DNA of 45,486 nt from a virus (IMGVR_UViG_2597489870_000005), one strand, 5' to 3'; positions 38,461 to 39,399 are shown, counted from the first letter of the stretch. The notes: a model not told the origin generated them from the sequence alone. Numbers and translations: made by a program.

Positions 38461-38479
38461 AAGGTGATATATGGAAGAA
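38461..38479 (+). repeat. Translation-initiation motif AAGGTGATATATGGAAGAA (copy 1)
   Basis: Near-identical to 38791-38809; heads a 28-aa acidic ORF (38471-38557) overlapping ral start. Confidence 0.6.
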
Positions 38480-38540
38480 GAATTTGAAGAGTTCGAAGAG
38501 CATCCTCAGGATGTGATGGAACAATACCAGGACTATCCGT

Positions 38541-38741
38541 ATGACTACGACTATTGATACAAATCAATGGTGTGGACAATTCAAACGATGCAATGGATGC
38601 AAGCTGCAATCGGAATGCATGGTTAAGCCTGAAGAAATGTTTCCTGTAATGGAAGATGGGAAATATGTCGATAAATGGGCAATACGAACGACGGCAATGA
38701 TTGCCAGAGAACTTGGTAAACAGAATAACAAGGCTGCCTGA
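38541..38741 (+). CDS. ral: Restriction alleviation protein Ral
   Basis: 66-aa ORF matching recalled lambda Ral (MTTTID.NQWCGQFKRCNGCKLQSECMVKPEEMFPV...). Confidence 0.9.
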   Translation: MTTTIDTNQWCGQFKRCNGCKLQSECMVKPEEMFPVMEDGKYVDKWAIRTTAMIARELGKQNNKAA

Positions 38742-38760
38742 TGGTGGCCTTTATTTTTTG
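38731..38760 (+). terminator. Terminator after ral
   Basis: Stem with G-U wobbles (38731-38750), loop ugau, followed by ttattttttgg; 3' part matches the terminator at 39255-39282. Confidence 0.5.
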
Positions 38761-38790
38761 GCCGTAAATAATTTCATGCTTATTACAATC

Positions 38791-38809
38791 AAGGGGATAT
38801 ATGGAAGAA
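38791..38809 (+). repeat. Translation-initiation motif AAGGGGATATATGGAAGAA (copy 2)
   Basis: 18/19 identical to 38461-38479; heads the 149-aa membrane protein gene. Confidence 0.6.
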
Positions 38810-39250
38810 CAAGCAAACAAGATTCTCGTAGAACTACTGCAAAAAGCCAGCAATGGAATAGACGCGGCTGTTTCATTCAGCCAAGCGCAGATTCCTGATG
38901 TTGTTCATCAGTTGCTGCTATGGAATATGGTTGACAGTCTGATTAAAACATTAATAGCCATTCTAACAATCCCACTGGTTTTCTGGTTTATGAAGAAGCA
39001 GTGCCAAAGAGTTGAGACAGGTAAAATCGGTGATGAAGGATACTCATGGGAGAGGGGAAATCCCAAATACAGGCCGACAATGGTTTGGGATAGCAAGGGA
39101 GATATTAACCTTCTTATCATGCCATTGGTTGGAGTTTTGACTCTGTGGGGGATTTTTATTATTGGTGTAGTAACCAATATGACTTGGTTAAAAATTTGGC
39201 TGGCCCCAAAGCTTTACCTTATCGAATATGCAGCATCATTGGTTAAGTAA
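38801..39250 (+). CDS. Uncharacterised two-TM membrane protein (moron between ral and ea10)
   Basis: 149-aa ORF with two hydrophobic helices; no counterpart at this position in recalled lambda map; own terminator. Confidence 0.6.
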   Translation: MEEQANKILVELLQKASNGIDAAVSFSQAQIPDVVHQLLLWNMVDSLIKTLIAILTIPLVFWFMKKQCQRVETGKIGDEGYSWERGNPKYRPTMVWDSKGDINLLIMPLVGVLTLWGIFIIGVVTNMTWLKIWLAPKLYLIEYAASLVK

Positions 39251-39254
39251 TTTC

Positions 39255-39282
39255 AGGCCGCATAGTCGGCCTTTATTTTTGG
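39255..39282 (+). terminator. Rho-independent terminator after 149-aa membrane protein gene
   Basis: Stem aggccg/cggcct with loop catagt, followed by ttatttttgg. Confidence 0.7.
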
Positions 39283-39399
39283 CATAAACAACAGAATAAA
39301 CACAGCACTGTGTATTCATTCCAACGAGTGAATACACGGAGCAATGTCGCTCGTAACTAAACAGGAGCCGACTTGTTCTGATTATTGGAAATCTTCTTT

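Follow-up and report, generated by a model that had tools for sequence, protein, structure and literature searches.

Does a tandem pair of small early genes, each opening and closing with the same short sequences, owe its layout to the exchange of units at those sequences, or do the shared sequences merely mark the joints that survive? This question is raised by an interval of a 45,486-nucleotide viral stretch (IMGVR_UViG_2597489870_000005, the whole of which is called the window here), in which two small expression units follow one another: orf28-ral, and then a gene for a 149-aa protein with two TM segments. The interval is the accessory part of the lambdoid early-left (pL) operon of a lambda-like prophage. 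Comparison with approximately 300 related loci shows it to be a module-exchange hotspot with its joints at two pairs of short sequences that the units share, and it is proposed, with a probability of about 0.75, that the shared SD-start and terminator sequences act as short-homology joints for the exchange of units and that orf28 is a selected component of the ral unit. The loci were drawn from viral contigs scanned for the start motif (120 loci), from an unbiased retrieval of 80 loci that code for the 149-aa protein and from a scan for the upstream linker preceding other genes; many are near-identical prophages and the sampled loci are not independent. A megablast search of 38300-39500 against phage records matched 394 records, of which only two were covered to 80% or more. 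The features of the window on which the argument draws are as follows.

36495-37145, plus strand: cI
37457-37729, plus strand: N, of the early-left (pL) operon
37746-38327, minus strand: sieB (Pfam SieB)
38447-38470, plus strand: left edge and ribosome-binding region of orf28-ral, with the commonest left homology breakpoint (38447)
38461-38482, plus strand: first copy of the start motif (SD, spacer, ATG, GAAGAA), heading orf28, from a repeat search
38471-38557, plus strand: orf28 (lambdap47 of lambda), from the ORF, the lambda annotation and a match to phrog_16060 at 7e-19
38541-38741, plus strand: ral, restriction-alleviation gene (Pfam PF11058 Ral, E = 1.7e-48, full length)
38730-38762, plus strand: terminator 1, a 9-bp hairpin and tail GGCCTTTATTTTTTGGC, predicted intrinsic-terminator-like
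38763-38790, plus strand: spacer from terminator 1 to the second start motif, which moves with the 149-aa gene in the tandem layout
38791-38812, plus strand: second copy of the start motif, heading the 149-aa gene, from a repeat search; a frequent left breakpoint
38801-39250, plus strand: 149-aa accessory gene (phrog_3054 at 2.8e-64), with two hydrophobic segments
39255-39283, plus strand: terminator 2, a 6-bp hairpin and tail GGCCTTTATTTTTGGC, predicted intrinsic-terminator-like
39284-39304, plus strand: post-terminator linker ATAAACAACAGAATAAACACA, with insertion points for cargo near 39295 and 39304 placed from cargo joints
39305-39343, plus strand: strong conserved hairpin within the sequence annotated as bsq4 in Sf6 (dG -23 kcal/mol, z = -6.7)
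39398-39425, plus strand: terminator homologous to tL2A of Sf6 and HK620, the right edge of the variable slot, from alignment and a predicted hairpin
39446-39814, plus strand: ea10 (DUF2528), directly 3' of ral in lambda

Downstream of ea10 lie cIII, with its Rfam thermoregulator, kil, gam and bet. The assignment of ral is secure, with 162.5 bits against a Pfam cut-off of 25 and residues 1-66 of 66 matched. In lambda, pL units are transcribed by N-antiterminated polymerase, which would cover every unit of the interval. An Rfam scan of 37300-40000 returned the cIII thermoregulator only, with neither the terminators nor the 39305-39343 hairpin matched.

The start motif, AAGG(T/G)GATATATGGAAGAA, stands at 38461-38479 and 38791-38809, and the tail, GGCCTTTATTTTT(T)GGC, begins at 38746 and 39268; the coordinates and sequences that an earlier note on this DNA gave for these four copies are exact. 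When up to two mismatches were allowed, AAGGKGATATATGGAAGAA matched the 45.5-kb window twice (0.01 expected by chance), and the matches of GGCCTTTATTTTT are confined to 38746-38758 and 39268-39280 (0.08 expected). Over the whole window there are only two direct repeats of 19 nt at no more than one mismatch, for a Markov-shuffle expectation of 0.13. A repeat search extended the 5' pair to 22 nt at 91% identity (38461-38482 and 38791-38812) and the 3' pair to 27 nt at 70% identity (38736-38762 and 39257-39283), and by eye the similarity runs on past the tails (GGCCGTAAATAA versus GGCATAAACAA). Both tails are 3' of G+C-rich hairpins, one of 9 bp at 38730-38751 (-19.4 kcal/mol), in whose 5' arm and loop lie the ral codons KAA and the stop, and one of 6 bp at 39255-39272; each hairpin is followed by the U-run TTTATTTTT and both sites score as intrinsic-terminator-like, so that both are predicted terminators. 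To judge from their sequences, terminators 1 and 2 look like diverged copies of one element. The repeats are thus also expression signals, an SD and start at one end of a unit and a predicted terminator at the other. The two units with shared bounds described in the earlier note are real in respect of both pairs, although the first cassette consists of orf28 together with ral and not of ral alone.

As had been noted, a 28-aa acidic ORF (38471-38557) runs into the start of ral, overlapping its ATG (38541) by 17 nt. To the earlier note this ORF looked like the 5' end left over from a displaced gene; read in this way, orf28 would have been decapitated on the arrival of ral and would be no gene itself, and several points agree with that reading: the SD, ATG and GAAGAA are common to orf28 and the 149-aa gene, the ORF has only 28 codons before it is lost in ral, it is non-essential for plaque formation (PMC10695390), and decapitated heads do occur nearby, L170 having a 149-aa gene of which only a genuinely truncated head is left. 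However, this is very unlikely for the following reasons: first, the 28 codons are kept in 84 of 87 distinct orf28 haplotypes, and the variable sites, counted over the 23 codons not common to ral, fall 4/3/16 on codon positions 1/2/3 (chi-square p = 0.001). A stricter set, restricted to intact ral, gives 1/2/14 where ral itself gives 17/11/25, and the third-position bias of orf28 is therefore stronger than that of ral. Second, P22 has an identical orf28, unannotated, ahead of a ral of only 76% identity, and a Salmonella variant differs at 5 residues at the same length. Third, no intact ral was found without orf28 among the compared loci, and the module's left edge lies 5' of orf28 (38447) in every case and in none between orf28 and ral. 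Fourth, no longer parent ORF was present among 142 matches to the motif, and the likeness of the orf28 product to the 149-aa protein is limited to MEE. With its frame kept and its changes concentrated at third positions, orf28 is probably a real, selected coding sequence of the ral unit, and the 28-aa peptide appears to be the conserved, bona fide gene product that the earlier note had set against its own interpretation.

The product of orf28, MEEEFEEFEEHPQDVMEQYQDYPYDYDY, has 28 residues, a pI of 4.05 and a charge of about -12, and is thus extremely acidic where Ral is mildly basic. It has no match in Pfam, NCBIfam or PADLOC, PHROGs places it in phrog_16060 ('unknown function'), and it is left unannotated by PGAP and in the P22 RefSeq record; no functional study of it was found in the literature searched. 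Conceivably orf28 is a leader through which the translation of ral is coupled, or else it encodes an acidic partner peptide. The clear purifying selection on orf28 means that it deserves annotation and a functional test together with Ral.

The second unit carries a gene that is absent from lambda, where ea10 directly follows ral. Its product has no Pfam, NCBIfam or PADLOC match and only an 'unknown function' family in PHROGs, hydropathy identifies two hydrophobic segments, and every one of 516 homologues across Enterobacterales prophages is named 'hypothetical'. The MEEQ forms of the family are in pL operons, while homologues with MNEQ or MQEE N-termini sit in the late region, either 3' of holin-endolysin-spanin or just 5' of terminase. 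These late-region homologues have unrelated flanks, without start motif or shared tail, and their start reads ATGAACGAG or ATGCAAGAA; one Salmonella copy (ATGAACGAGCAAGCAAACAAGATTCTCGTAGAG) matches the window from codon 4 on and not in ATGGAAGAA. The absence of the motifs from the late-region homologues indicates that they belong to the pL slot and not to the 149-aa gene, and this is a membrane protein family that shifts between two places, the lysis-terminase part of the late region and the early-left operon. The possibility was considered that the start of the 149-aa gene was simply grafted from orf28, which is favoured by the different starts of the late-region homologues. The direction of such a graft is called into question by L207, a pL copy, 75% identical, that has the MEE start with a different SD and terminator, so that either gene may have donated the start patch. 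Among the 76 loci of the unbiased retrieval, the sequence 5' of the 149-aa gene is the ral-terminator spacer in 35 (31, plus 4 with a variant), an orf28-type upstream in approximately 38 and something else in two, with one locus lacking a flank; terminator 2 is 3' of the gene in at least 70 of the 76.

These data also bear on whether the repeats resemble each other through functional convergence or chance, as a strong ribosome-binding site before Met-Glu-Glu and the tail of a terminator might. SD, ATG and U-tracts are constrained, and in unrelated viral contigs about 12 genes, themselves unrelated, open with the start motif. Nevertheless, this explanation is largely refuted and can be given very little weight: the chance expectations in the window are those given above, the identity spans spacer and codon bases that are not constrained, homologues of the same gene in the late region have another start and other flanks, and the homology breakpoints described below coincide with the motif edges.

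If the shared sequences are joints, related phages should carry the products of joining at them. Alignment with lambda, Sf6 and a Stx2a phage identified a tandem arrangement in Sf6 and the Stx2a phage, whereas lambda has orf28-ral, one tail and ea10 (ral-TGA-TAGTGGCCTTTATTTTTGGCATAAATAACAG), a 522-bp difference from the window that is bounded by the tail repeat. Loci that read CTGATGGT, then GGCCTTTATTTTT, then GGCATAAACAACAG are the exact product predicted for a crossover between the two tails of the window, and close relatives of the window, L080, L036 and L045 among them, are 98-99% identical to it on both flanks, differing only by the tail-bounded indel. Over 38440-39300 the prophage of E. 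coli SEC470 matches the window at 100% identity. The reciprocal product, lacking the first unit, is seen in L056, L099, L342 and L343 (the last two from E. albertii), in which the window's own sieB-orf28 intergenic sequence precedes the 149-aa gene and AAGGTGATATATGGAAGAA runs straight into CAAGCAAAC of that gene, a fusion from which ral and the body of orf28 are missing; in L056 and L099 the sequence ending at 38482 is joined to 38791. In a further five loci (L031, L091, L096, L103 and L104) an Sf6/Stx-type orf28 upstream is fused to the 149-aa gene, and the start-motif fusions of all nine loci fall inside ATATGGAAGAA. Both single-unit products predicted from the tandem layout therefore exist, and both are common.

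The 522-bp difference might alternatively be read as the insertion of a small mobile element, the 149-aa gene, with the tail repeat as its target-site duplication, since a direct repeat of 13-16 nt surrounds the insertion relative to lambda. This transposon reading was rejected and has almost no probability left to it: neither a transposase nor an integrase lies in or beside the 149-aa unit, terminal inverted repeats are lacking, the same tail closes an unrelated Nmad5 gene and precedes other cargo, and the supposed duplication is a whole diverged terminator and not a clean copy.

The tail in particular is found in many combinations of upstream and downstream sequence. Its upstream contexts are three, the end of ral (..GCTGCCTGATGGT), the end of the 149-aa gene (..AGGCCGCATAGTC) and the end of c207, a 207-aa gene whose last codons, EAA and stop, form the 5' arm of its hairpin; downstream there are at least five, namely the bsq4 linker and hairpin, the 149-aa spacer and the SDs that head at least three further cargo genes. 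At the left edge, the sequence upstream of 38447 is sieB, the end of N or other genes, depending on the phage. Breakpoints recur at 38447, 38758/38771, 38791/2, 39255/39262/39268, 39295/39304 and 39425-39439, and the ends of high-scoring pairs number 82 at 38447, 97 at 38720-38775, 51 at 38791/38792, 115 at 39304 and 145 at 39420-39445. Of 828 breakpoints within 38330-39445, 740 (approximately 89%) fall within 264 of 1116 nt (24%) and 559 fall at four motif sites that make up 17% of the interval, counts that are descriptive only, since the motif or the gene served to select the loci and these are related to one another.

The alignment across related phages that the earlier note had proposed finds different cargo between the same boundaries. 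There are 21 architectures between the ral terminator and the tL2A-like terminator, built from 11 recurrent ORF families: orf28, ral, phrog_3054 (in 149-, 140- and 121-aa forms) and eight others, c207 (Pfam Nmad5), c156, c108, c98, c66, c65, c62 and c52; one further ORF, x32 (DUF7446), is a singleton. Boundaries are common to unrelated genes, including those of Nmad5/c207, c65, c98, c156, c108 and DUF7446. With a slash marking the joint, c65 and c98 start at AACAACAG/AGG and c108 branches earlier, at AACAA/TATGGGG, while c62, c66, c108 and c156 end at GAATAA/GCACTGTG, which is the foot of the 39305-39343 hairpin. The Sf6-type orf28 ribosome-binding site, TTATTTGAGGTGAGATATG, is used by c156 and partly by c207, and c207 is closed by the same hairpin as terminator 2. 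In loci with c52 the 39305-39343 hairpin is replaced by a different sequence of equivalent fold.

How might such joints have formed? It is suggested that the shared sequences of 13-27 nt would act as homology patches through which otherwise unrelated DNA is joined by phage or host recombination, or by replication slippage, and that units would thereby be deleted, added or replaced with their expression signals undamaged. Because the repeats are functional, as SD and terminator, selection would keep them and they would remain available for the next exchange. The cassette exchange at shared boundaries that the earlier note envisaged is borne out in so far as exchange and loss occur exactly there in relatives; the part assigned to the repeats as recombination substrates is probable, on the strength of these comparisons between genomes. 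Patches of 13-22 nt are short for RecA-dependent exchange. In lambdoid phages, modules can be exchanged through short conserved boundary sequences (PMC3029335, PMC2327257) and there is experimental evidence that Red/Rad52-like recombinases drive lambdoid mosaicism (PMC3945230); a substrate role for the repeats fits both the boundary-sequence model and the recombinase work.

The most serious competitor is that the repeats are products of one past event, the insertion of a 149-aa unit already carrying a local copy of the SD and terminator, and that the arrangements seen today arose by illegitimate recombination with selection for intact genes, in line with the Hendrix/Juhala model of illegitimate recombination filtered by selection (as summarised in PMC3029335). 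At most mosaic joints boundary sequences cannot be found (PMC3029335), and several joints of the present interval are likewise without sequence common to the partners, namely left edges at 38447, 38727 and 38766 and the joints of HF4s and Gally, two phages in which the spacer 38763-38790 is present without ral. The truncated 149-aa head of L170 is the footprint of an imprecise event. Joints of this kind imply that illegitimate recombination also operates here, and at Gally, HF4s and L170 illegitimate joining clearly contributes. As an account of the whole interval it is nonetheless unlikely, at perhaps one chance in five: both precise single-unit products exist with their junctions inside the repeats, and the tail joins at least three upstream to at least five downstream contexts in so many combinations that they would be hard to obtain from one event. 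Short-homology joining at the shared sequences is thus preferred, although sequence comparison does not separate cause from survivorship, as joints might arise anywhere and those at boundaries survive.

The closest known counterparts are the boundary sequences (bsq) of lambdoid phages, which were reportedly defined by Clark et al. 2001 (J Mol Biol) in HK620 and are said to have been annotated in Sf6 by Casjens et al. 2004. Subsets of lambdoid phages have these short conserved sequences where non-homologous modules meet, and the sequences have been proposed as foci for homologous recombination (PMC3029335, PMC2327257). The GenBank record of Sf6 has 'bsq4; boundary sequence' and tL2A just 3' of the second terminator, and these align to 39305-39425. 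The repeats of the window resemble them in the following respects: they are conserved while the flanking DNA is non-homologous (the tail in its three upstream and at least five downstream contexts, the start patch with spacer-, lambda- and Sf6/Stx-type sequence upstream and two different gene bodies downstream), both motifs lie at the starts or ends of ORFs, that is at module borders, and breakpoints coincide with them (the 559 of 828 above, from related loci selected by motif or gene). Unlike the known boundary sequences, these two repeats carry no bsq label in the records of Sf6, HK620 and lambda, and here both copies of each are in one genome in tandem with both deletion products known. HK620 is without ral, and bsq features are absent from its record over the early-left region listed. 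For the interval, neither terminators nor boundaries are annotated in the lambda records J02459 and NC_001416.

Two other classes of event are partly comparable. A moron is an extra gene in a lambdoid phage (PMC3029335), and the 149-aa gene resembles one in lying between ral and ea10, which are adjacent in lambda, and in having its own predicted intrinsic terminator 3' (hairpin 39255-39272 and T-run). It differs in that its flanks are common to neighbouring units and not unique to it, and in that a consensus scan of the plus strand over 37400-39900 identified no sigma-70-like promoter, and thus none 5' of the 149-aa gene, which appears to rely on pL read-through. Deletion or duplication mediated by direct repeats of about 50 bp is exemplified by Cluster I mycobacteriophages (PMC3029335), and here too close relatives differ by an indel that has a short direct repeat at its bounds and may be a deletion or an insertion; the present repeats are, however, shorter (13-27 nt) and are expression signals that recur at several cargo slots.

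The locus is accordingly a clear local example of the boundary-sequence mosaicism already described for lambdoid phages, with no new mechanism; this kind of feature is known, bsq4 next door having been annotated two decades ago, and current understanding is not overturned by any of these results. What appear to be new in detail are the repeat pair with both of its natural deletion products, the catalogue of the slot's cargo and the selection signal of orf28. It is a long-running question whether lambdoid joints form through homology in short linkers or by illegitimate recombination followed by selection, and the locus offers an unusually clean natural test case for joint formation: with both repeat pairs in one genome, both products known and ten or more other families of cargo at the same joints, it can be tested directly with lambda genetics.

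A broader interpretation of the slot may be offered tentatively, and is on balance doubtful: the stretch from N/sieB to cIII would be a homology-driven cassette array, a phage counterpart of the integron, in which orf28 is a conserved but so far unrecognised acidic micro-protein working with Ral. In such an array every unit would have an RBS linker, a single ORF and its own copy of one ancestral terminator, a structured hairpin would close the whole, and the cargo would be accessory or anti-defence genes expressed early, ral and Nmad5 among them. The layout does recall an integron array, with promoter-less single-gene units, recurring boundary elements, one upstream promoter and reshuffling. 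In contrast to an integron, an integrase and attC-type sites appear to be lacking (the ORF listing has no integrase-sized ORF in 37000-41000), and exchange here would be driven by homology or microhomology and would not be site-specific, so that the comparison is an analogy of layout only. Whichever interpretation is adopted, the slot is a place in which to seek new early accessory or anti-defence genes.

A longer linker, GGCAGCAARCCACTTATTTGAGGTGAKATATG, is found ahead of at least 10 unrelated ORFs, and in Stx/Sf6-type phages it also supplies the last codons of N (GSKPLI and stop). This Sf6/Stx-type linker is absent from the window, which has a diverged lambda-type version. In L286 and L017 it lies directly 3' of the terminator tail, and a relative of it is present 3' of the P22 ral.

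The 149-aa gene family (phrog_3054) is mosaic within the gene itself: the first approximately 40 and last approximately 21 residues are near-invariant (window 38801-39250; related loci L001 1855-2277, L032 and L091), while the two-TM core between them occurs in at least three unalignable versions, of 149, 140 and 121 aa, and the nucleotide breakpoints inside the gene lie at about 38911/38924 and 39185. Homologues of the protein with an MNEQ or MQEE N-terminus are found in the late region of Pantoea, Citrobacter, Salmonella and E. coli prophages (L331-L341), where they are placed either directly 3' of the holin-endolysin-spanin genes or just 5' of terminase. 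The gene found in the pL slot of the window therefore belongs to one family that is present in two very different operons.

Exchange within the pL slot has also left an imprecise product. Locus L170 carries, at about 1100-1162, the head of a 149-aa gene that has truly been decapitated (MEEQANKILVEL...). This head, a footprint of imprecise exchange, is joined to the N-end linker and is followed downstream by another small gene and a complete copy of the 149-aa gene. At the 3' boundaries, the 5' arm of both terminators also serves as C-terminal codons (window 38730-38741 and 39255-39266; L071, L123 and L345). The KAA-stop end of ral falls within terminator 1, the EAA-stop end of c207, a cargo gene of the Nmad5 family, falls within the hairpin that also closes the 149-aa gene, and in Gally an unrelated 83-aa gene likewise terminates in the last codons of ral plus terminator 1.

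Beyond terminator 2 there is a further conserved and very stable structure, inside the sequence annotated in Sf6 as bsq4:

39305-39343: hairpin with a 13-bp stem, -23 kcal/mol, z = -6.7

In three loci that carry the cargo gene c52 (L014, L048 and L084), the equivalent position has a different sequence that forms an equivalent hairpin of 13 bp with a 4-nt loop, and it appears that between the window and these loci the sequence has been replaced and the fold retained. An Rfam scan returned no matching family for the window hairpin, which may be a candidate RNA processing or stability site.

The small gene preceding ral, orf28 (window 38471-38557; 813-899 in P22, L328), shows clear coding conservation; it is unannotated by PGAP in E. 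coli genomes and in the P22 RefSeq record. Within ral there is an imperfect direct repeat (38572-38603 and 38676-38707), and seven loci (L020, L024, L025, L029, L079, L075 and L102) have lost 104 bp between the two copies, an out-of-frame deletion that leaves orf28 intact. Twelve loci of lambda type carry a K60-stop ral of 59 aa.

Among 5,426 complete E. coli genomes, 1,489 match 38440-39300 in part and only 52 have the tandem arrangement of orf28-ral and the 149-aa gene; strain SEC470 (CP007594) is 100% identical to the window across this interval.

A 17-nt direct repeat, TTKCTCKCTGTAGGGGT, with a spacing of 34 nt, is present in the sieB-orf28 intergenic region (38341-38357 and 38375-38391), near the position of the annotated sieB promoter of P22. 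Besides the start-motif pair, the window contains just one direct repeat of 19-20 nt, CAACATCCAGTGCATCAAAA, with copies 14.5 kb apart at 18884-18903 and 33398-33417.
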